A stretch of 64,000 nt of DNA from Eubacteriales bacterium (GTDB lineage Bacteria > Bacillota > Clostridia > Oscillospirales > CAG-272), in the NCBI GenBank assembly GCA_045637205.1, contig JAZTYY010000005.1:12906-76905 (forward strand). The letters run 5' to 3'. The position numbers were made by a program, and so were the translations under genes. Below the pieces are notes generated by a model. It had not been told where the DNA came from. It saw nothing but the letters and a program-made list of their open reading frames with translations, and made no database searches. Of the stretch, positions 142 through 44,367 are shown piece after piece; position 1 is the stretch's first letter, and each line of letters begins with the position of its first letter.

Positions 142-216
142 GGCCCGTTGGTCAAGCGGTTAAGACACGGCCCTTTCACGGCTGTAACATGGGTTCGATT
201 CCCGTACGGGTCACCA
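142..216 (+). tRNA. tRNA-Glu (UUC)
   Basis: Acceptor GGCCCGT/ACGGGTC, anticodon arm CGGCC-CTTTCAC-GGCTG (anticodon TTC), T-arm ATGGG-TTCGATT-CCCGT, encoded CCA. Confidence 0.92.
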
Positions 217-230
217 AATGAAAATAGCTT

Positions 231-269
231 GAACTTTTTTACCATTGGAAAAAGGTTCGGGCTTTTTTG
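231..269 (+). terminator. weak A/U-rich hairpin plus T-run after the tRNAs
   Basis: GAACTTTTTT / AAAAAGGTTC stem, loop ACCATTGG, then GGGCTTTTTT. Confidence 0.4.
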
Positions 270-302
270 TTTCTTAGAAGAAGTTAAAAAGTATTAAAAA
301 TA

Positions 303-334
303 GCGGACGGAGTTTTCTCCGTCCGCCATTTTTT
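303..334 (+). terminator. rho-independent terminator
   Basis: Perfect 10-bp stem GCGGACGGAG-TTTT-CTCCGTCCGC followed by CATTTTTT. Confidence 0.7.
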
Positions 335-558: not shown

Positions 559-3500
559 ATGACAAAAAAATCAAAGAAATATAAAGAAACCACAAAAACC
601 ACTGTATCCGCGCTGAGTAATCCTTTCTCTACTGGAGGCGGAGGAGTGGATTTTGAACATCGTGTTCAGGCCACATTCTTATTGGCATTGTTGGTAGAAG
701 GTTTTTCACCTTTGCTAAATCTGCCGATAACATCGGTGCTTTTTCAAGCTAAAAGATCAGGATATGATACGGACGATATTGTTTTATTTTCGTCTTCTGA
801 TACATATTCTGCAAAATTAATATGTCAAATCAAGCATGGGATAACTATTACCGAAAATAATAAAACATTTAAGGATGTAATTGCTTCTGCTTGGAGTGAT
901 TTTAATAAACCTACATTTAATAGGCAAACTGATAAAATTGTATTAATTACAGGAGCAGTCGCAAAATCCAATACATTGCGCTTCATATATGATCAAGCAA
1001 ATGGTGCGTTAGATGCAAATGATTTTATTAATAGAATATATAGTCCTGGATACTCTAATGATACCAATCGAGAAAAGCTGAATGCTATCAAATCTCTTTT
1101 GAAAAAGGCCCATAATGACCAGGATATTACTGATGAGCAACTGTGGGAATTCTGCAAGGTGTTTACAATTCTTGTTTTTGACTTGGATTATGAGAGTAGT
1201 GTAAATGAATTTCTCATTCACGCATTGATTGCTACAAATTGCAAGGATAACGCCATATCGGTGTGGGCTCAACTTGTTGATCATGCAGCGAGATGTGATA
1301 AAACGGCCGCTCATGTTTCATTAAATAACATTCCGGAGTATGTCAAGCAAAACTTTAAAAATTTATTGTCGATATCCGATTCTATGCCAGAACCTCTTGA
1401 TTTTGAAATTGATTCTATCTGGGCAAAATTAGCTTTAATGGGATCTTGGAATGAAAAAAATGATTTTGATAAGAATTTAGTAGAGTCATTTTTAGGAAAA
1501 AGTTATTCAGAAATCCAAAAAATCATACAAGAGAATTCTTTGCAGCCAAACCCAAACGCTTCTTTTTCGCAGGGGTTATGGCACATCAACCATAGACGAT
1601 CAATTGTCAAAATTTGTTCAAAATTTTATTTTGAAAACGATGTCAAGAAATTCTTTGAAATCTCCCAAGAGGTTCTTAAAGAAAAAGATAAACGAATTCA
1701 AGATAATGGAGATTTTAGTTTGTTAGTTCCAGAATCTGGACCATTTGTACATTCTGAAGCATTAAGAAATGGAATAATACAGGGCCTTGCGATGATTTGT
1801 AATCTGTCTGGAACACAATTGTCGTGTTCTGCAGAAACAATTAATTTTGAAGCTATAATGTTGATTCGCAATTTGTTCGATGAATCGAACAGTTCGACAT
1901 GGATAAGTTTAGATTCACATCTGCCTACTGTTGCTGAAATTCACCCAACAGAATATTTATCTTGTTTGGAGAGACAAATTATTAATACCCCTCAAAATAT
2001 AGAATCTTTATTTCCAAAGAATGGCGATAATTTGTTGTTTTCCAGAAATTTTATTTGCTCAATATTGTGGTCTTTGGAAGGCTTGGCGTGGGATGAAAAA
2101 TATTTTGTGAAATGTATTAGAATATTAGGACAAATATCAAAATTAAAATTTGACAAAACCAATTCATCCAACACACCAATTAATTCTATCATAAGCATCA
2201 TGCTTCCTTGGCATATACAGACTTTAGCAACTAAGGAAAAGCAGAAGAATGCAATTAAAGCATTACAACAAGAATGTCCGGATGTTGCTTGGATAGTAAT
2301 CAAAGGATTACTTCCACATGCTACACGCACCACAGGAGGCACACATCAGCCGAGATACATTATTTCCAATTTGCCTAAAGAAGTAAGAACTTCCAATGAA
2401 GATATTTTAAGTTTGTATCAATATTATTCGCATGTAGCTTTAGGCTTGGCTAAAGCTGATTATTGTAAAATGGTTGATTTGTTATCATATTACGATGATA
2501 TGGACCGTGATACAATCGTAGAGTATCTGTCTTTGATAACAGAACAGGCTGCAGGATGGGATGATTCAAAAAAATATCCATTTTGGAAGGAGCTTTCTAA
2601 TCAAAAAGAATGGTTGGTTCATAATACTGAGGATGAATTGGACGACTTTATGATGAAGTTGTTAGAGTCTACTATTGAAAAAGTTGATCCTACTGACATT
2701 AGGTATATATATAGAAGATTGTATGAACCAGGATATTTTGACTATGATGATGAAGGCGAATTTCAAACAAAATGGCAAGCTAAACGAAAAAAACAAGAAA
2801 CTGCAGTTTATGACATATATGTTTTGTACGGAATAGAGTCTGTAGTAGAATTCGCAAAAGAACTCAACAACGAAGGCTGGATTGCTCAAAACTTAGGTAA
2901 GCAACTAAGTGAAGAAGACATAAAATTGCTTTTAAAAATGTGTTATGAAACCAAGTTGAATAAGGAGTTTTTTGCATCAGTAATTTACGGATATATAATA
3001 ACTAATGATTATGATGCGATAACTCAAATGGAATTGGAAACATATAGTTTGGATTATATCTCTTGGGTGCTTTCTTGTCTTCGTCCTTCTATGCGTTTAT
3101 TTGAAATTGTCGAAGAATTGTTGAGTGAACAGAGCAATTTGTATTGGGATTCTATCATTATTCCGCGCTTTGGTTTGGATGATGATGTTGATTTGAACTA
3201 TGTGTGGAAAAAGTTGGTTGAGCAAAAACGATATACTGCTGCTATTAATCTTTTTGGTATTACCGCTGAAAATTGTAGTATATCTCATGATAAGCTACAA
3301 GAAGTATTAACCCAAGCAGCAATTACTGAAAGCAACGATAGGTTGGACTCTGATGCTGTTAGAAATTTAATTGAACTATTACAGCTGTCGAGAAGCATAA
3401 GCATAGAAGCAATTTCTAATGTGGAACTTATATATTTATCTTGGCTTGATGAATATTCCAAAGTAAAGCCATTAGCCTTGAGATATCGATTAGCAAATGA

Positions 3501-4080
3501 ACCAATGTTTTTCTGTGATTTGATAAGACTGTTCTACAAAAAAAGACATTCTGAAACACATGAAGAAAAAATATCCGAGCAGATGGCAAAAAGACTTTGG
3601 CAAATATTGCACAATTTCTGCGTAATTCCAGGAACAGACTGGGAGGGCAAATACAACGAAAACTGTTTTTGCCAATGGATTGATTATTGCAAGACTTGGG
3701 CTAAGGCAGAAGATCGAGAAGCTGTAGTGCAGCAAACTATCGGTAATGGCCTCTCATATGCACATAAACTCGAGAATGGTCTTATTGATGACTTTATTAT
3801 GAGAGAACTCAATAAGATTGAAAATGAAGAAATGCGCCGGGGATATAGAATAGGTATTTTCAATCAGCGAGGAGTTAGGTGGATTGATCCCGAGGGAAAA
3901 CCAGAATTCCAACTTGCCGAAAAATACAAAGATATGGCAGAATCTGCAGAATCTATAGGATATGCAAAATATGCAGAGATACTTCGTGTAATTTCAGATG
4001 ATTATATCAGTGAAGCAAAACACCACATTAGAGAACATCAACTTCAGCAAGAACTTCACAAAAGAGAAAATGACGACTAA
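559..4080 (+). CDS. large orphan protein, 1173 aa: PD-(D/E)xK-like N-terminal signature plus long helical-repeat body
   Basis: Uninterrupted 3.5-kb ORF, RBS AGGAG 7 nt upstream. N-terminal GGGGVDFEHRVQ ... YDTDDIVLF ... LICQIKHG. No Walker A, signal peptide or TM segment seen. Hairpin terminators on both sides. Confidence 0.85.
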   Translation: MTKKSKKYKETTKTTVSALSNPFSTGGGGVDFEHRVQATFLLALLVEGFSPLLNLPITSVLFQAKRSGYDTDDIVLFSSSDTYSAKLICQIKHGITITENNKTFKDVIASAWSDFNKPTFNRQTDKIVLITGAVAKSNTLRFIYDQANGALDANDFINRIYSPGYSNDTNREKLNAIKSLLKKAHNDQDITDEQLWEFCKVFTILVFDLDYESSVNEFLIHALIATNCKDNAISVWAQLVDHAARCDKTAAHVSLNNIPEYVKQNFKNLLSISDSMPEPLDFEIDSIWAKLALMGSWNEKNDFDKNLVESFLGKSYSEIQKIIQENSLQPNPNASFSQGLWHINHRRSIVKICSKFYFENDVKKFFEISQEVLKEKDKRIQDNGDFSLLVPESGPFVHSEALRNGIIQGLAMICNLSGTQLSCSAETINFEAIMLIRNLFDESNSSTWISLDSHLPTVAEIHPTEYLSCLERQIINTPQNIESLFPKNGDNLLFSRNFICSILWSLEGLAWDEKYFVKCIRILGQISKLKFDKTNSSNTPINSIISIMLPWHIQTLATKEKQKNAIKALQQECPDVAWIVIKGLLPHATRTTGGTHQPRYIISNLPKEVRTSNEDILSLYQYYSHVALGLAKADYCKMVDLLSYYDDMDRDTIVEYLSLITEQAAGWDDSKKYPFWKELSNQKEWLVHNTEDELDDFMMKLLESTIEKVDPTDIRYIYRRLYEPGYFDYDDEGEFQTKWQAKRKKQETAVYDIYVLYGIESVVEFAKELNNEGWIAQNLGKQLSEEDIKLLLKMCYETKLNKEFFASVIYGYIITNDYDAITQMELETYSLDYISWVLSCLRPSMRLFEIVEELLSEQSNLYWDSIIIPRFGLDDDVDLNYVWKKLVEQKRYTAAINLFGITAENCSISHDKLQEVLTQAAITESNDRLDSDAVRNLIELLQLSRSISIEAISNVELIYLSWLDEYSKVKPLALRYRLANEPMFFCDLIRLFYKKRHSETHEEKISEQMAKRLWQILHNFCVIPGTDWEGKYNENCFCQWIDYCKTWAKAEDREAVVQQTIGNGLSYAHKLENGLIDDFIMRELNKIENEEMRRGYRIGIFNQRGVRWIDPEGKPEFQLAEKYKDMAESAESIGYAKYAEILRVISDDYISEAKHHIREHQLQQELHKRENDD

Positions 4081-4129
4081 ATTAATTGCGTAATAATAAA
4101 CGTTGGCTATTTTTGAAGATAATAGAAAC

Positions 4130-4164
4130 AACGGACGGAGACATCTCCGTCCGTTATTTCTTTT
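4130..4164. terminator. bidirectional hairpin terminator between convergent genes
   Basis: AACGGACGGAG-ACAT-CTCCGTCCGTT then ATTTCTTTT; same 9-bp stem core as the hairpin at 303-326. Confidence 0.65.
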
Positions 4165-4253
4165 CGGAACATTCCGAGTAATCGTACGATTATGTTTTGT
4201 TATATATTAAATTATGATAGTTTTGTTTTAGGTGTTTTCATCTTAATTTTGTT

Positions 4254-4406: not shown

Positions 4407-4476
4407 AAAACAGTATTAACCTCCTTTCTTAGATGATTCTATATATATTATGATAGATTTGCCTTGAATTCTGCAA

Positions 4477-5517
4477 TCACCCCGAAATCGACGCCAAATA
4501 GTGATCCGCGACTATGCTCTCGCGATTATGTCCGAGGGCGCGAGATGCTTCAAAAAGTGCCTTGCGGTCATATGATGTGCCTTTTAGATCCTTGCGACAA
4601 TAATACGCGGAGCCCACGTCCCTGAAGCCCTTTAGCAATATTCTTTTGCCGTCTATTGTAGTGTAATAGTCCTCATTGCCTCTAATTAACTTTCTCCCGC
4701 TTTTTGACGTGTAGCTCTTGACTATCTCATTCTTGTATATGATTAATCTCTCATTCTTAAACTCATCGAGAGAGCGTTTGTAATCGTTGTATATGCGTGC
4801 TGCATATTCTCCCCTGTATGAGTGTATATCAGCATTTTCACTTGGGTTCGGGAATATCTTGTCCTCTCCTGACTTTTTACACAATTCAATTACAAACTTA
4901 ATCTCATTCTCATTACCAACGATAGGCGATATCCTTGTTCGTCCGCCCTTAGTGTTTTTTGTTATATGTAAAAAGTACTTTCCGTCTTTTTCTATAAGAT
5001 CATTTCCTCTTATTTGTGAAAGCTCTCCTCTGCGGAGTCCCGTGCATTTACAGAACATAATGAGATCAGCATTGTTCTTCTCACTAAAGTTTTTATCTCT
5101 TTCTGCTGTTCCTCTGCTTCTTGTGATATTACTTCTTTTTCTTTGTGGAGTGGTAATATCAAAATCTCTTGTACTGCAACCGTAAAGCTTTGCCAAAGCG
5201 CACGCCTCAAGTTTTATCGTATATGGAGATTGCCCTCTGTCTATTTCTGCCTGTATCCATTTTTCAACGAACAGTCTGCACTCTTCAAGAGTACGTACCT
5301 TATGACCAATGCGCTCATCAGCGGGTTGCTCCTTGCACCACTTGACGAAATAGCAGCAGTGCTTCAAATATGCTTTATACGTGGACCACGAATATATTTT
5401 CTCCGTGTGAGCATTTTTCAGCTTGGCTGCATATTTGCTCTCACCTATAGCAAGCTTGGAGTTAAGGTTTTCTTTCACTTGCTCTGTTAATGATTTTCTC
5501 GGTTTATTGTGTCCCAT
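4477..5517 (-). CDS. tyrosine-type site-specific recombinase / integrase
   Basis: 346 aa; catalytic-domain motifs TGLRRGEL (Arg I) and LGHNRESIVADHYL (His-x-x-Arg ... Tyr); N-terminal SAM-like core-binding region; RBS GGAGG. Confidence 0.9.
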   Translation of the reverse strand: MGHNKPRKSLTEQVKENLNSKLAIGESKYAAKLKNAHTEKIYSWSTYKAYLKHCCYFVKWCKEQPADERIGHKVRTLEECRLFVEKWIQAEIDRGQSPYTIKLEACALAKLYGCSTRDFDITTPQRKRSNITRSRGTAERDKNFSEKNNADLIMFCKCTGLRRGELSQIRGNDLIEKDGKYFLHITKNTKGGRTRISPIVGNENEIKFVIELCKKSGEDKIFPNPSENADIHSYRGEYAARIYNDYKRSLDEFKNERLIIYKNEIVKSYTSKSGRKLIRGNEDYYTTIDGKRILLKGFRDVGSAYYCRKDLKGTSYDRKALFEASRALGHNRESIVADHYLASISG

Positions 5518-7082: not shown

Positions 7083-7853
7083 ATGCAAAATTTTATATTT
7101 TACAACTATAGCCGACTGAATTCGGAAGAAATCAAGCACGAAGCTCACACCCACAACTCCTTTGAATTGATTTTCGTTTATGAAGCAACGGGCACCTATC
7201 ACGTTGAGGACAAGTATTATCAGATTAATTCCTACGACCTCATTATCACCCGCCCCGGTGTCCATCACTTCATAGATCTTAAGGCAAACACGAATTATGA
7301 AAGAATAAACATTCTTGTTGAATACAATAGCTCCCTTGCTTATCAGTTAAAAAAATACTGCAAACAGTTCGATATAATCAGCTGCAGAAACCTTGATAAT
7401 ATCGTGAGTGCTTTCGACAGAATGAAGGAATATCACGACAATTTAAGCAGTGAGGATTTTTCTCTTCTTCTCAATTCTTTAATAATCGAGATTGCAGTAA
7501 ACACTCAGTTTTTCACCAAAGATTACGCAAATACCCCCAAGAACATTTCTCCGACGATAAGCCAAGCACTTGACTATATCAATAAGCATCTGTTTGAAAT
7601 AGAAAACGTTCAAGAGATAAGCTCTGCTCTATTCATTTCAAAAAACTATTTGATTGCACTTTTCAAAGAAACGCTTGAGATCACTCCTATGAAGTATATC
7701 AACAACAAAAGATTGGTTATGGCGCAAAAGCGTCTTCTTAAAGGCGAAAAGCCAACCAAAATTTACGCGGAATGCGGTTTCAATAACTACGTAACATTTT
7801 ATAAAGCATACACAAATTATTTTGGACATCCCCCGTCGGATGATATAAACTAA
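7083..7853 (+). CDS. AraC-family transcriptional regulator (cupin-like sensor plus HTH)
   Basis: 256 aa; C-terminal AraC HTH ISSALFISKNYLIALFKE...MKYINNKRLVMAQKRLL...IYAECGFNNYVTFYKAYTNYFGHPPS; RBS AGGAGGG. Confidence 0.9.
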   Translation: MQNFIFYNYSRLNSEEIKHEAHTHNSFELIFVYEATGTYHVEDKYYQINSYDLIITRPGVHHFIDLKANTNYERINILVEYNSSLAYQLKKYCKQFDIISCRNLDNIVSAFDRMKEYHDNLSSEDFSLLLNSLIIEIAVNTQFFTKDYANTPKNISPTISQALDYINKHLFEIENVQEISSALFISKNYLIALFKETLEITPMKYINNKRLVMAQKRLLKGEKPTKIYAECGFNNYVTFYKAYTNYFGHPPSDDIN

Positions 7854-7884
7854 AAAGGTCGGTTGTATTCAACCGACCTTTTTT
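7853..7884. terminator. bidirectional terminator between the AraC gene and the ATPase gene
   Basis: AAAAGGTCGGTTG-TATT-CAACCGACCTTTT flanked by an A-run and a T-run. Confidence 0.75.
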
Positions 7885-13395: not shown

Positions 13396-13427
13396 ATATA
13401 GGTCGGTTGAATTCAACCGACCTATAT
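13396..13427. repeat. perfect 32-bp palindrome, sequence-related to the hairpin at 7853-7884
   Basis: ATATAGGTCGGTTGAATTCAACCGACCTATAT; core GGTCGGTTG(A/T)ATTCAACCGACC shared with 7857-7878; sits between two operon blocks. Confidence 0.7.
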
Positions 13428-37599: not shown

Positions 37600-37760
37600 T
37601 GATATAATATAATCGTAACAGAAATGGACTCGGTCCATTTTGTCCCCTCACATTAGAGGGAGAAATGCCCACATTAGGGCGCAAAGAAGAAATGCGAGGG
37701 CGCGCAAGCGCACCCCGCCGGCTTTCTTGCGTTTTAGTGTGGGCTTTTTGCGTGGCTATC
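37600..37760 (+). promoter_or_regulatory. extended -10 promoter plus GC-rich structured leader of the serine recombinase
   Basis: TGATATAAT 37600-37608. Hairpins 37622-40, 37645-60, 37667-80, 37698-714. Long-range helix 37668-77 / 37734-43 followed by CTTTTTG. Confidence 0.45.
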
Positions 37761-37813
37761 TTTCATACTAATAAGGCAAGAAATATTAAAATCATTCAAA
37801 TGGAGGTATTAGT

Positions 37814-39523
37814 ATGAATGGAAAGTTGAAAGCAGTTATCTATGCTCGTTTCTCTTGTAGCAAACAGAGAGAAGAAAGTATCGAAGGTCAGATCCGTGTG
37901 TGTACGGAGTACGCAAAGTATCATGATATAGAAATTGTCGGAACCTATATTGACAGGGCTGTATCAGGAAGAACAGATACCCGTCCCGAATTTGCCCGAA
38001 TGATGAGGGACAGCACTTACAAGAGATTTAACCTTATTCTTGTTTGGAAGTTTGACAGATTTGCCCGCAATCATTATGACTCGGCTCATCACAAATGGAT
38101 GCTCAAAAACAGCAACGTAAAGGTTATATCCGCAACAGAGTATATCTTGCCCGGTCCGCAGGGTATTATGTTGGAATCACTGCATGACGCTTTAGCTGAA
38201 GTGTATTCTGCCACTCTTTCTGAAAACGTAAGGCGCGGAATGTCGGAAAATGCTCTGAAGGGGCTTTGGAACGGAGGATCGGTTCCTCTTGGTTACAGAG
38301 TAAATTCTGACCGAAAGCTTGAAATAGATCCCGAGTCTGCCCTTGTTGTGAAAGAGATATATAAGCTGTATTCTGACGGAAGTACAATAATGGATATATT
38401 CAACTATCTCAACAAAATGCACATAACTCGTCCTAACGGTAAGGCACTAAGCTATAATGCAATCCGAAAGGTCTTAACCAACCGTATATATATCGGGGAG
38501 TACAATCATTCGGGAATAAAGATCGAAAACGCTATTGAACCCGTCGTTTCAGTTGAGATATTCGATGTTATTCAATCAAAATTGGCAAGGAATGCACGCG
38601 CCCCTGCCAGACACACCGCCAAAGAAGAGTATCTTCTCACAACAAAGCTTTTTTGCGGCAAATGCGGAGCAATGATGGTGGCTCAATCAGGCACAAGCAA
38701 AACAGGACGAATACACAAGTATTACGCTTGCACTCGTCAGAAGAAGCACCTATGCGATAAACGTATGCTACATAAGGATCAGATTGAAAACTTTGTAGTT
38801 CGCAAAACAATGGAAATGTTAACCCAACCGAAGATGATAGACAAGCTCTCTAAGATGCTTTTTGATCTTCAAAACGAAGAAAGTTCACTTCTTGCTTCAT
38901 TGGAAAGACAATACAAAGAGAAAGAAAAAGAGATAAACAACCTGCTTAATGCAGTTCAAAAAGGTCTTGCTACTGATATACTATTAACTCGCTTGGATGA
39001 GCTTGCTAAGGAACGTGATGCCGTTGCGGAATCCATTACTAAAGAGGAGATAAAAACACCAATCTTCACGCAGCAACAGTTTAAGGATGCGCTGAACCAT
39101 TTTAAGAATATGGACATTAGCACCGACGAGGGCAAAAGAAAGATCATAGACGTATTTGTGAATGCTATATACGCCTATGATGACCACATCAAAATCATAT
39201 ACAACACCAACGGCCAAGAAGAAAGCGTTTTGCTTGATGAAATAAACAGTTCTACCTTGTTTTCATCCAGTTCACCAAAACAAAAAAGAGGAGTGCAAAA
39301 GCACTCCTTTTTTTGTTTTGCCGATGCGTACGCATCAGAGAATCAATCACTGCAACACTCGTGTTGCAGGATTGGGTTCGCAAATTCGACGAAAGAACGT
39401 TCCGTGCTAGCACAGGAACTTCTCGGCGAATTTAGTTCACGAGTAACACGAGTGAACCTTCCCGTACATCTATGTCACCACAAAAGTGGTGCTTTTTTCA
39501 TTTTGTCGACACATATGTGTTGA
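37814..39523 (+). CDS. large serine recombinase (functional C-terminus uncertain)
   Basis: Resolvase motif VIYARFSCSKQ, DRFARN, recombinase domain, Zn-ribbon CGKCG...YYACTRQKKHLCD, coiled coil. The ORF runs ~70 codons past the terminator hairpin at 39284-39316 into repeat copy 1. Confidence 0.88.
   Translation: MNGKLKAVIYARFSCSKQREESIEGQIRVCTEYAKYHDIEIVGTYIDRAVSGRTDTRPEFARMMRDSTYKRFNLILVWKFDRFARNHYDSAHHKWMLKNSNVKVISATEYILPGPQGIMLESLHDALAEVYSATLSENVRRGMSENALKGLWNGGSVPLGYRVNSDRKLEIDPESALVVKEIYKLYSDGSTIMDIFNYLNKMHITRPNGKALSYNAIRKVLTNRIYIGEYNHSGIKIENAIEPVVSVEIFDVIQSKLARNARAPARHTAKEEYLLTTKLFCGKCGAMMVAQSGTSKTGRIHKYYACTRQKKHLCDKRMLHKDQIENFVVRKTMEMLTQPKMIDKLSKMLFDLQNEESSLLASLERQYKEKEKEINNLLNAVQKGLATDILLTRLDELAKERDAVAESITKEEIKTPIFTQQQFKDALNHFKNMDISTDEGKRKIIDVFVNAIYAYDDHIKIIYNTNGQEESVLLDEINSSTLFSSSSPKQKRGVQKHSFFCFADAYASENQSLQHSCCRIGFANSTKERSVLAQELLGEFSSRVTRVNLPVHLCHHKSGAFFILSTHMC
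39284..39316 (+). terminator. rho-independent terminator embedded in the recombinase ORF tail
   Basis: AAAAGAGGAGTGC-AAAA-GCACTCCTTTT plus a T-run. Confidence 0.7.
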
Positions 39524-39559
39524 ATCAAGCTATCTTTTTGCGAAGCAAAAAATTATGGG
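39369..39559 (+). repeat. 191-bp direct repeat copy 1 (hairpin-rich, with internal intrinsic terminator; candidate small RNA)
   Basis: Identical to 39643-39832 except for a one-T length difference; terminator CACCAC-AAAA-GTGGTG plus T6 at 39476-39498. Confidence 0.9.
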
Positions 39560-39642
39560 CAAGAATGCCTTAAGCATTCTTGGTTCTATTTCTCGCAATG
39601 CGAGAAATAGTATCTCGATTTCCGTACGGATTTTTTTATTCG

Positions 39643-39832
39643 GGATTGGGTTCGCAAATTCGACGAAAGAACGTTCCGTGCTAGCACAGGAACTTCTCGG
39701 CGAATTTAGTTCACGAGTAACACGAGTGAACCTTCCCGTACATCTATGTCACCACAAAAGTGGTGCTTTTTCATTTTGTCGACACATATGTGTTGAATCA
39801 AGCTATCTTTTTGCGAAGCAAAAAATTATGGG
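39643..39832 (+). repeat. 190-bp direct repeat copy 2
   Basis: See copy 1; terminator hairpin at 39750-39765 plus T5. Confidence 0.9.
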
Positions 39833-39856
39833 GAGCTTTCGCTCCCCCCTTTTTTT
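39830..39856. terminator. bidirectional terminator
   Basis: GGGGAGC-TTTC-GCTCCCC followed by CCTTTTTTT; on the minus strand it follows the stop of the small ORF 39858-39950. Confidence 0.7.
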
Positions 39857-39857
39857 A

Positions 39858-39950
39858 TTATCTACCGCAGCAGCAGGTGATAACAAGAAGCGCGATAAGA
39901 ATAAGCCAAATATAGTCGTTGTCAAAAAGATTGCAAAGGCAGTTGTTCAT
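39858..39950 (-). CDS. 30-aa hydrophobic Cys-rich peptide
   Basis: MNNCLCNLFDNDYIWLILIALLVITCCCGR. RBS GGAG 7 nt upstream. Promoter TTAACA (40040-45) -17- TAGAAT (40017-22). Terminator 39830-56. Below the ORF-track cutoff. Confidence 0.45.
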   Translation of the reverse strand: MNNCLCNLFDNDYIWLILIALLVITCCCGR

Positions 39951-40132
39951 AAATGCTCCGTTTCTGTTGCATGTGCAACTAATGTGATATGAGTGGGTTT
40001 TTCCCCACTTGATATCATTCTATGAAATAAAGCAAAATGTGTTAAATAAATTGGTGGTGTCAGTTGGTATAAAAATTTAAATGGATGCATAAGGAATATA
40101 ATCCCCCCAAAAAAACAAAAAGGACTGATTTT

Positions 40133-40921
40133 TCAGTCCTTTTTTGCTCTTGCAACGATATACCAGCGCTCGTCCGTATCGTTTATAGGCGTGAAATTAA
40201 AATCGGAATACATACCGATAAGCTCAAATCCATTGCTTTTAAGTGCATTTTCAATCTCTTCTCTTGAATAGCACCTCTCCACCTGAATTTCATCGCGTCG
40301 AGAATAGCCCTTGCTTCCCTCTTCCTTTTCAAACACAGTTAAGGAAAAGTCGCAAAGTTGACTTTCTTCGTCATAATAGTTTTGCCAAACGCAAAACGCA
40401 TTGTTGCCACAATCCTCTTCCTCATAAACGTAGGTGTTTAAACCGTAAACGTTTTTGAATTTGTGTGGTGTGTTAATATCAAATAAGAATAATCCGTCAG
40501 GATCAAGATAGTTGTGCACCAAAGAAAAGCACTTGTCAAGCTCTCCCTCTCCAACAAGGTAGTTCACACTGTCAAGACAGCAGGTGATTGCACCGACCGT
40601 GCCGTAAAGCTCAAATTCACGCATATCCTGAAGCAAAAACAACACAGAATGGGGCAAATCAAGGTCATATTTACGGTCAAATGCTACGTTAAGCATATCC
40701 TCTGAGCCGTCAACACCAATCATGTCATATCCACGCTTTGCAAGCTCAAAGGTCATGCTACCCGTGCCGCAAGCAAGATCGAGAACAAGCTCGGGGCGCT
40801 CTTTTAAGTACTTATCAAAGCACTCTTCAAAAAAATCAGCCCACGCGCTGTAATCTATATGCGCATTTATATTGTCGTAAATAGTCGATATTGCACCGTA
40901 ATTATCAAATTTTTTACTCAT
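40133..40921 (-). CDS. class I SAM-dependent methyltransferase
   Basis: Motif I LDLACGTGS. Start at ATG 40921 (MSKKFDNYG) overlapping the hprK stop. Terminator hairpin 40121-40140 overlaps the stop codon. Confidence 0.85.
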   Translation of the reverse strand: MSKKFDNYGAISTIYDNINAHIDYSAWADFFEECFDKYLKERPELVLDLACGTGSMTFELAKRGYDMIGVDGSEDMLNVAFDRKYDLDLPHSVLFLLQDMREFELYGTVGAITCCLDSVNYLVGEGELDKCFSLVHNYLDPDGLFLFDINTPHKFKNVYGLNTYVYEEEDCGNNAFCVWQNYYDEESQLCDFSLTVFEKEEGSKGYSRRDEIQVERCYSREEIENALKSNGFELIGMYSDFNFTPINDTDERWYIVARAKKD

Positions 40922-44032: not shown

Positions 44033-44062
44033 AAAGGACGCACAAAGGTGCGTCCTTTTTTG
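44033..44062 (+). terminator. rpsR terminator
   Basis: AAAGGACGCAC-AAAG-GTGCGTCCTTT plus a T-run. Confidence 0.8.
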
Positions 44063-44069
44063 TTATCCG

Positions 44070-44290
44070 TTTGCTTCATAAATTGGGATTTGGCGGTGCG
44101 AAGCACCGCAACTAAATCCGCCTTCTGCGGAATAAATCCACAAATGGTGGATGAAATCGCTTGCGCGATGAAATCTGCCTTATGGCAGGTTAATAAAAGT
44201 CGGATTTGATTTCATCCAAGGCATTAAGCCGAGGATTTCATCCAAACTTGTTTGGATTTCATCGTGGCTTTTGCCACGATTTCATTTCTT
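44070..44290. repeat. array of about 9 short hairpins linked by the motif GATGAAATC / GATTTCATC
   Basis: GATGAAATC at 44150 and 44167; reverse complement GATTTCATC at 44208, 44234 and 44255; GATTTCATT at 44278. Spacers are small palindromes (e.g. ATCGTGGC-TTTT-GCCACGAT). Confidence 0.75.
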
Positions 44291-44336
44291 CAAATCTCCA
44301 CGATAAATCAAAATTTGAACCTTTTATATAAATTCA

Positions 44337-44367
44337 AACAGGGTGCACGTTTATGCACCCTGTTTTT
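44337..44367. terminator. bidirectional terminator downstream of the MBL gene
   Basis: AACAGGGTGCA-CGTTTA-TGCACCCTGTT then TTT. Confidence 0.7.

Follow-up and report, generated by a model that had tools for sequence, protein, structure and literature searches.

Immediately downstream of a large serine recombinase gene, a 64-kb stretch of a Eubacteriales genome (assembly GCA_045637205.1, contig JAZTYY010000005.1; the whole stretch is referred to below as the window) carries two nearly identical, hairpin-rich direct repeats. Each repeat unit contains an undescribed, conserved folded module whose helices covary among related genomes, and the sequence flanking the module reproduces the T-arm and acceptor strand of the tRNA next to it, which is tRNA-Glu here and tRNA-Cys in relatives. 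Our preferred reading, held tentatively and at somewhat less than an even chance, is that the units are tandem repeats of the attachment-site (att) type, i.e., relics or miniature derivatives of integrative elements at tRNA T-loops or 3′ ends. The recombinase next to them would belong to a different element, of about 39 kb, and its link to the repeats is indirect: both are tied to the 3′ end of the same tRNA-Glu.

A repeated, covarying folded module

The two copies are the same except for a single T (T6 in copy 1, T5 in copy 2) and follow each other with a period of 274/273 bp, 274 bp from start to start, as the initial annotation of this DNA, made from the sequence alone, had described. They are made up of exact blocks of 129 nt (39369-39497 = 39643-39771) and 66 nt (39494-39559 = 39767-39832). 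Neither self-comparison nor the covariance model described below detected a third or partial copy in the 64-kb window. The perfect hairpins listed in the annotation are all present, and the region is indeed rich in them: folding of the 601-nt stretch 39270-39870 against shuffles gave z = -12.96, with -2.96 for a single repeat unit, and 13 terminator-like sites were observed in the region against 2.4 expected by chance.

Several simple origins of the unit were rejected. It is not coding, given that every frame contains stops or lacks a ribosome-binding site (RBS) and that the Pfam search was empty; the frames are open only by read-through, as had been stated. Nor is it a decayed 3′ end of the recombinase gene (the alignment is insignificant, 270 of 500 shuffles scoring as high) or a piece of another part of the window, where it has no similarity. 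A blastn search of the region against phage and plasmid collections gave no match, an exact 21-mer of the central hairpin was absent from the genome, metagenome and viral collections searched, and the six-frame translation of the unit, compared with 5.8 billion proteins as a check for spurious open reading frames (ORFs), likewise matched nothing.

Homologues were found through contigs with an exact match to ribosomal protein S18, i.e., genus-level relatives, which were then searched with blastn (L-numbers below denote the related loci or contigs compared with the window). Matches of 63-79 nt at 84-89% identity were obtained in L092 and L095-L097. The matching part corresponds to the 5′ two-thirds of the unit, and in the relatives it lies in the opposite orientation at a different locus, adjoining tRNA-Cys. 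Its identity equals that of the ribosomal protein genes, while the methyltransferase and hprK genes reach only ~75% and other intergenic DNA is unalignable. A pattern search added L090, L091 and the metagenome contig L100 to the module carriers.

The aligned sequences share a 4-bp closing helix (P1), a 6-bp hairpin (H1), a 21-bp irregular hairpin (H2), a conserved junction GCGAAC and an additional hairpin (H3), which stands ahead of P1/H1/H2 in a module of ~100 nt. A covariance model (R1) built from the relatives alone, with the window sequence excluded, recognized both copies from end to end of the model (Table 1) and matched nothing elsewhere in the window, nor in the recombinase-bearing loci L001, L002 and L083-L089. 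A second hairpin-dense intergenic stretch of the window (44033-44365), with five perfect hairpins between rpsR and a convergent 670-aa gene, gave no significant hit with the model.

Of the cells in the model-based alignment, 95% are paired, and double-sided changes occur in 18 of the 36 pairs, with almost no compensated pairs in shuffled and slid controls. The changes stem from few lineages, so the number of independent covariation events is small. H2 occurs in two variants (AAATTCG... and ATTTTTG...); 11 of its 21 pairs change from one to the other, compensated in every case, and its bulged or mismatched bases are all conserved across variants. Compensated pairs combined with conserved bulges are expected of a folded single strand, either RNA or DNA, and not of double-stranded protein-binding DNA. 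The nested helices drawn in the initial annotation (AAATTCG/CGAATTT around GTTCC..GGAAC, GTTCAC/GTGAAC and a short closing helix) thus gain support from covariation, the homologues and compensatory pairs that it proposed to look for having been found in related genomes. Its description of the flanking hairpins as unrelated holds only in part, since all of them are present but two belong to the same element: CTGCAACAC-TC-GTGTTGCAG (39350-39369) is H3 of copy 1, and TCCGTACGGA (39621-39630) lies within H3 of copy 2.

The suspicion that the unit falls outside known RNA families also stood. Rfam 15 at the gathering threshold, run on the whole window and eight related loci, returned tRNAs only, and the region and its L095 homologue, searched by E-value, gave only sub-threshold noise (e.g., Clostridiales-1 with 18.8 bits against a cutoff of 48). 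A literature search for a covarying fold in such small units yielded no description of one and general precedents only.

The copy number of the module varies between related sequences. A single module is present in L090-L092 and L095-L097, two identical units in the window, and two modules with different H2 types, 16 nt apart, in L100. L091 and L092 are nearly identical yet carry different H2 types. In L093 the module is cleanly absent, and the site lies between two copies of a 9-nt repeat; the indel that separates L092 from L093 is bounded by this 9-nt direct repeat, and slippage fits it equally well.

The flanks of the module mimic the adjacent tRNA

On the plus strand, the unit reads GGATT-GGG-TTCG-[C H2 A H1 C]-TT-CCCGT-AC(ATCTAT)GTC-A-CCA, followed by CACCAC-AAAA-GTGGTG-T6. 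Set against the tRNA-Glu of the window (ATGGG TTCGATT CCCGT ACGGGTC A CCA), the unit copies the T-stem, the T-loop and the 3′ acceptor strand; H2 and H1 are placed in the T-loop of the tRNA-Glu-like sequence, and P1 is the counterpart of the T-stem. The two are colinear at TGGGTTCG, TTCCCGTAC and GTCACCA, and 2 of 500 shuffles score as high. In L090 and L091 the modules match the end of their own tRNA-Cys, TCTGGGTG--GCCTCCA, including the discriminator base and CCA (0 to 1 of 300 shuffles), and the cross-controls, tRNA-Glu against the L090/L091 modules and tRNA-Cys against the window unit, remained at background. In L092, L095 and L096 the tRNA-Cys match lies at the same position and is not significant alone. 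Two further sequences, the spacer piece TCGATTTCCGTACGGA (39615-39630) and the palindrome GATGCGTACGCATC, resemble decayed tRNA-Glu fragments, singly not significant against shuffles. We propose that the tRNA-Glu at 142-216 is both the template mimicked by the units and the integration target (attL, B arm) of the element described below.

Arrays following tRNA genes were also observed in metagenome-assembled genomes of more distant Clostridia. In L048 (9383-9854, reaching the contig end), tRNA-Cys is followed by 3.6 copies of a 130-nt unit, each of which closes with 15 nt from the 3′ end of the tRNA. A terminator and a hairpin region make up the unit together with CCGG-TTCGG-[hairpin]-ATT-CCGGGTGGCGCC, and removal of the hairpin restores a canonical T-arm. 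In L043 (7897-8310), an exact 20-nt copy of the tRNA-Gly 3′ end is located 122 nt downstream of it, behind two hairpins; the two-hairpin block is duplicated, with the second copy 287 nt further on, and copies of the tRNA-Gly 3′ end occur in both direct and inverted orientation.

The serine recombinase and its missing stop codon

The recombinase contains the PF00239 (Resolvase), PF07508 (Recombinase) and PF13408 (Zn_ribbon_recom) domains, all above the Pfam cutoff. Its best NCBIfam match, CcrB, scored 146.6 bits against an equivalog cutoff of 900, and the protein is therefore CcrB-like rather than CcrB itself. A homology search returned thousands of relatives, and all 40 homologues inspected agree up to ...ESSTLFSxGAP (about residue 485), after which they continue into unrelated tails of 0 to 250 residues. 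In the closest relatives, L001 (92% aa identity) and L002 (82%), DNA likeness to the window ends exactly at 39279, directly after CCAGTTCACCAAA, and each carries a different hairpin and T-run past this break. In longer contigs the recombinase gene forms the outward-reading end of mobilizable elements, e.g., in L086 with a Mob_Pre relaxase.

These alignments suggest that the missing stop codon, correctly noted in the initial annotation (the first stop lies at 39523), is a family-wide consequence of an att site in the last codons of the gene: the element boundary would sit there, and the tail would be coded by whatever lies outside. The odd ORF, with its read-through into the repeats, can thus be explained without a new mechanism. 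A functional link, with the repeats as RNA partner or substrate of the recombinase, had also been raised as worth testing, and the data speak against a specific one: homology already breaks off at 39279, short of the repeats; the module is missing from the recombinase-bearing loci L001, L002 and L083-L089; and in related host genomes the module stands next to tRNA-Cys with no recombinase nearby. With module and recombinase found at separate loci, a dedicated partner RNA or site is not indicated, and the two are adjacent in the window because both are tied to the tRNA-Glu 3′ end.

The 5′ leader of the recombinase gene (37612-37813, plus strand) is preceded by an extended -10 promoter (TGATATAAT, ~37600) and folds strongly (z = -5.4), with a long hairpin at ~37667-37744 and two small hairpins that both have the loop CACATTA. 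It is 91% conserved in L001, absent from L002, and has no Rfam match. A different serine-recombinase element (Resolvase, Recombinase, Zn ribbon, DUF4368 and a Mob_Pre relaxase) was observed in L094 (11935-15227) just downstream of rpsR, which marks this neighborhood as a recurrent landing zone for such elements.

A putative ~39-kb element at tRNA-Glu

The initial annotation saw no obvious element around the recombinase, yet the recombinase most likely closes one. From the similarities at both ends we infer a single integrated element at 217-39279, with attL at tRNA-Glu and attR within the recombinase gene, and consider this arrangement probable; the proposed attR junction lies at 39279/39280. 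In L002, the DNA directly after the recombinase is 92% identical over 124 nt to window positions 211-334, which abut tRNA-Glu, and a piece just upstream of the L002 recombinase matches window 4470-4668 with 85% identity. The 3′ end of the recombinase gene, TTCGTTTTCATCCAGTTCACCAAA, imperfectly resembles the tRNA-Glu 3′ end, TTCGATTCCCGTACGGGTCACCAAA, and TCACCAAA is common to both junctions.

The region in between encodes GH20, DUF4838 and hyaluronate-lyase-like domains, NagA/NagB-like enzymes, GFO/IDH oxidoreductases, ABC transporters and an AraC regulator, an amino-sugar/glycan utilization cluster that is the probable cargo. The window probably holds a ~39-kb serine-recombinase element through which this cluster would have entered a tRNA gene in an uncultured gut Clostridium. 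If these boundaries are right, the sequence from 39280 onward is the original tRNA-Glu trailer, and in the empty site tRNA-Glu would be directly continued by AAACAAAAAAGAGGAGTGC. The hairpin at 39289-39308 is probably the original terminator after tRNA-Glu, and the same order of tRNA, terminator and module is found in relatives. Exact-protein look-ups of the recombinase, the methyltransferase, HprK and a 30-aa peptide gave no match, and that of SSB only contigs of ~1 kb, from which it follows that the species of the window is barely sampled. The idea that tRNA-Glu lies beside the methyltransferase gene in relatives was discarded; a Val-Asp-Phe-Gly-Cys tRNA cluster or other genes are found there instead.

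Several additional features were observed within or at the edge of this region. Similar copies of a terminator with flanks (GGACGGAG...CTCCGTCC) at 290-334 and 4115-4186 bracket a 1173-aa ORF (559-4080) without Pfam domains; L002 has a single terminator copy and lacks the ORF, which therefore looks like an insertion between duplicated terminators. A 346-aa ORF on the minus strand (4477-5517), also without Pfam domains, has a truncated, 85%-identical 3′ remnant right upstream of the recombinase in L002 (411-609), which suggests an accessory gene of this element family. In the glycan cluster, long hairpins at 7852-7883 and 13396-13427 share the core GGTCGGTTG(T/A)ATTCAACCGACC and may represent a repeated terminator or operator. 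The terminator at the recombinase junction (39275-39321) and the one that ends the methyltransferase gene (40107-40153) are 70% alike over 47 nt, including their A-rich/T-rich flanks (CCAAAACAAAAAAGAGGAG..., CCAAAAAAACAAAAAGGAC...); this likeness may be due to chance or reflect a second copy of the target flank.

Origin and nature of the repeat units

If the units are att relics, the tRNA-Glu trailer would have received tandem composite units, each a folded module embedded in a copy of the tRNA-Glu T-arm and acceptor strand and completed by a terminator-like hairpin. The folded module would represent the conserved element-side arm of an att-type repeat, and the units would have piled up in tandem, as did the ssrA 3′-end direct repeats and gene-less cis-mobilizable remnants in Dehalococcoides. 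The separate ~39-kb element closed by the recombinase would have inserted at the same tRNA-Glu 3′ end, displacing the former trailer and its repeats by 39 kb from the tRNA; a crossover in the last recombinase codons would have left the ORF without its own stop, running into the flanking DNA. The repeats themselves would probably have been made by another, separate element family. Such an origin accounts for flanks that track the neighboring tRNA, for tandem arrays, for the presence/absence polymorphism and for the location at a demonstrable hotspot of integration.

A number of observations weigh against this scenario. Neither an integrase nor a full-length parent element with the module was found in ~1 Mb of related loci or in viral contigs, and the family amounts to only about seven independent module sequences, all within a single genus-level group. 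A fold is not a known requirement of classical att arms, compensation and conserved bulges fit RNA or folded single-stranded DNA better, and an att-relic origin leaves selection for the fold of the arm unexplained. The tRNA-like T-stem halves flank the module instead of standing together, contrary to what a simple attR predicts, and the identical 78 nt after both copies fit attP-like tandem junctions or a segmental duplication, not two independent integrations. As for the 39-kb element, no relaxase, conjugation or transfer genes were recognized in it, its GC content is unremarkable, GC at third codon positions (GC3) does not mark it either, and the exact-protein look-ups retrieved no conspecific empty site.

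A broader possibility, which we regard as doubtful though well worth considering, is that the module is a new class of structured element of gut-Clostridia tRNA trailers, either a tRNA-mimicking or tRNA-pairing noncoding RNA (ncRNA) or a folded-DNA site of miniature T-loop-inserting elements, with flanks re-tailored to the adjacent tRNA. In its folded-DNA form, the element may be attC-like in logic while unrelated to attC in sequence and recombinase. The att-relic and ncRNA readings are mutually compatible, and the module may act as DNA or as RNA.

The main rival, less likely than not, is that the module is a gene for a new structured ncRNA family of tRNA trailers, present singly or as a tandem pair of genes or domains. 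On the plus strand, such an RNA would be a mimic of the tRNA 3′ half closed by an intrinsic terminator; on the minus strand, its 5′ end would be complementary to the 3′ end of the adjacent tRNA and it would stop at the shared bidirectional terminator. In either case it would act by mimicry of, or pairing with, the neighboring tRNA or its precursor. The strong covariation with retained unpaired bases speaks for an RNA, as does the 84-89% nucleotide identity between window and relatives, a level that matches ribosomal protein genes and that other intergenic DNA falls far short of. In one copy the H1 loop is cUUCGg, and several multi-domain RNAs have tandem modules, as seen in L100. In the window and L048 the unit is followed by terminators on the plus strand, in relatives on the opposite strand, and terminator-like hairpins are present on both strands around the module. 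The shared terminator suggests the minus strand as the functional one, but the L048 terminators and the wobble-pair counts (4 for the minus strand, 9 for the plus strand) point the other way, so that the strand is ambiguous. Read by eye, the DNA upstream of the module shows no conserved consensus promoter on either strand. An RNA gene alone also leaves the switch from Cys-like to Glu-like flanks with the adjacent tRNA unexplained, fits poorly with clean presence/absence between close relatives, and has no Rfam match.

We consider it improbable that the repeats arose by a recent local segmental duplication of intergenic DNA without function, or that they are a low-copy repeat resembling a miniature inverted-repeat transposable element (MITE), with ordinary terminators as hairpins and a chance likeness to tRNA. 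The copies are identical, which implies a recent event, and there are only two in 64 kb; exact 21-mer and six-frame searches of large public collections did not find the unit, and individual tRNA matches are moderately significant at most. However, the module is kept with compensatory changes in other genomes, and mimicry of three different tRNAs is seen in independent genomes. Neither flanks nor spacer are part of the duplicated sequence, which argues against a simple tandem duplication. A MITE was rejected: the unit ends lack terminal inverted repeats, and instead of many dispersed copies, ~1 Mb of related DNA contains one locus per genome fragment.

Finally, it is very improbable that, in a narrower form of the proposal in the initial annotation, the units are recombination substrates or decoys of this serine recombinase, with tRNA-Glu-like tails or H1/H2 as pseudo-attB, an idea based solely on short motif resemblances (the unit tail CATCTATGTCACCA to the tRNA-Glu end targeted by the recombinase and to the recombinase P arm CATCCAGTTCACCA; the window H1 AGTTCA-N13-TGAAC to a reconstructed attP AGTTCA-N16-TGAACT; and H2, an imperfect palindrome of 52 bp with a dinucleotide at its center, a layout common to serine-recombinase sites in general), since the motif spacing is unlike attP, the unit aligns with the recombinase 3′ end no better than shuffles do, a double-stranded DNA site recognized by its sequence would not be expected to have variable, compensated arms, relatives carry modules without such a recombinase in the vicinity, and every recombinase-bearing locus examined lacks the module.

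Together, these results describe a new element that combines unusually clean compensatory evolution with flanks copying the adjacent tRNA. If it acts as RNA, it would represent a new tRNA-mimicking or tRNA-pairing family; if it acts as a DNA site, it would point to very small, structure-dependent integrative elements at tRNA genes.

Feature coordinates and the neighboring small gene

Coordinates are collected in Table 1. The hairpin at 39830-39847, read on the minus strand, closes a small candidate gene (39858-39950, minus strand) for a 30-aa hydrophobic, Cys-rich peptide, MNNCLCNLFDNDYIWLILIALLVITCCCGR. This gene has a GGAG RBS, a promoter TTAACA-17-TAGAAT at 40045-40017, a structured leader and the GGGGAGC terminator; the peptide has no NCBIfam match and no exact match in the protein index.

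Table 1. Features of the repeat region and of the proposed element ends (window coordinates)
Feature	Position	Strand	Details
tRNA-Glu(UUC)	142-216	+	ARAGORN, Rfam tRNA; 3′ end GGGTTCGATTCCCGTACGGGTCACCA matched colinearly by the unit
Left end (P′ arm), proposed	217-334	+	Includes terminator 303-326
Large serine recombinase, conserved coding part	37814-39279	+	ORF reads on to 39523 through flanking DNA
tRNA-Glu-3′-end-like sequence CTTGTTTTCATCCAGTTCACCAAA in last recombinase codons	39256-39279	+	Aligned with tRNA-Glu end and L001/L002
Bidirectional terminator hairpin	39289-39308		Minus-strand terminator scan; A-run on one side, T-run on the other
Folded module, copy 1	39350-39468	-	H3, junction GCGAAC, H2, H1, P1; 87.6 bits, E = 4.7e-25, full model
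Repeat copy 1	39369-39559	.	GGATT, then P1 GGG 39374-39376, TTCGC
Repeat copy 1, hairpins read on plus strand			H2 39382-39433; H1 39435-39457; P1 CCC 39461-39463
Repeat copy 1, tRNA-Glu-like tail	39461-39480		CCCGTAC..GTCACCA
Repeat copy 1, terminator-like hairpin	39476-39491		T6 at 39493-39498
Repeat copy 1, last 61 nt			Palindromes 39509-39520 and 39535-39551
Spacer, 83 bp	39560-39642		Hairpins 39560-39582 and 39586-39610
Degenerate tRNA-Glu 3′ fragment TCGATTTCCGTACGGA in spacer	39615-39630		Followed by T7
Folded module, copy 2	39622-39742	-	Covariance model, 81.3 bits, E = 4.5e-23
Repeat copy 2	39643-39832	.	T5 replaces T6, otherwise as copy 1
Bidirectional terminator GGGGAGC-TTTC-GCTCCCC	39830-39847		Flagged on both strands by terminator scan

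Comparison with known systems

The closest parallel to the recombinase is DsiB, a CcrB-like serine recombinase of the Dehalococcoides ssrA islands, whose ORF overlaps the att site, with the stop codon outside the island and divergent C-termini; tandem islands there are bounded by direct repeats of the ssrA 3′ end and include gene-less remnants (McMurdie et al. 2011, PMC3146451). The window shares with them a serine recombinase at the element edge, an ORF running over att, a tRNA-like 3′ target and tandem 3′-end repeats. It differs in that the target is tRNA-Glu and not tmRNA, and in that the recombinase, at the far end (attR), shares its reading direction with the tRNA-like sequence. Neither a second small recombinase nor an integration module was seen here, and the “islands” between repeats are only ~274 bp long and contain a conserved folded module. 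Cis-mobilizable elements (CIMEs), known from the site-specific accretion of integrative and conjugative or integrative and mobilizable elements, are likewise gene-poor, att-bounded remnants in tandem with intact elements at one site (PMC5704250), but described CIMEs are kilobases long, whereas the units here are below 300 bp.

With the attC sites of integrons, the module shares the conservation of structure over sequence, compensated pairs, conserved bulges and variants side by side in arrays. Unlike attC, it has no R″/R′ core motifs (RYYYAAC / GTTRRRY), IntI or cassette ORFs, and tRNA mimicry is not an attC trait. An integron attC site was thus rejected: the helix bases GGGAAC/TGCGAAC and GTTCCC/GTTCGC do not fit the consensus, and no tyrosine recombinase is nearby. 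PrrF1 and PrrF2, which are tandem small-RNA paralogues, offer a parallel on the RNA side, being nearly identical structured units ~100 bp apart, each followed by a terminator-like hairpin; in contrast to them, the repeats have no promoter found in or before the units and show tRNA-end mimicry and presence/absence polymorphism. The recombinase part of this locus is of a known kind, as are att repeats at tRNA-like genes; what sets the present repeats apart from the known ones is the very small size of the units and their conserved, covarying fold.

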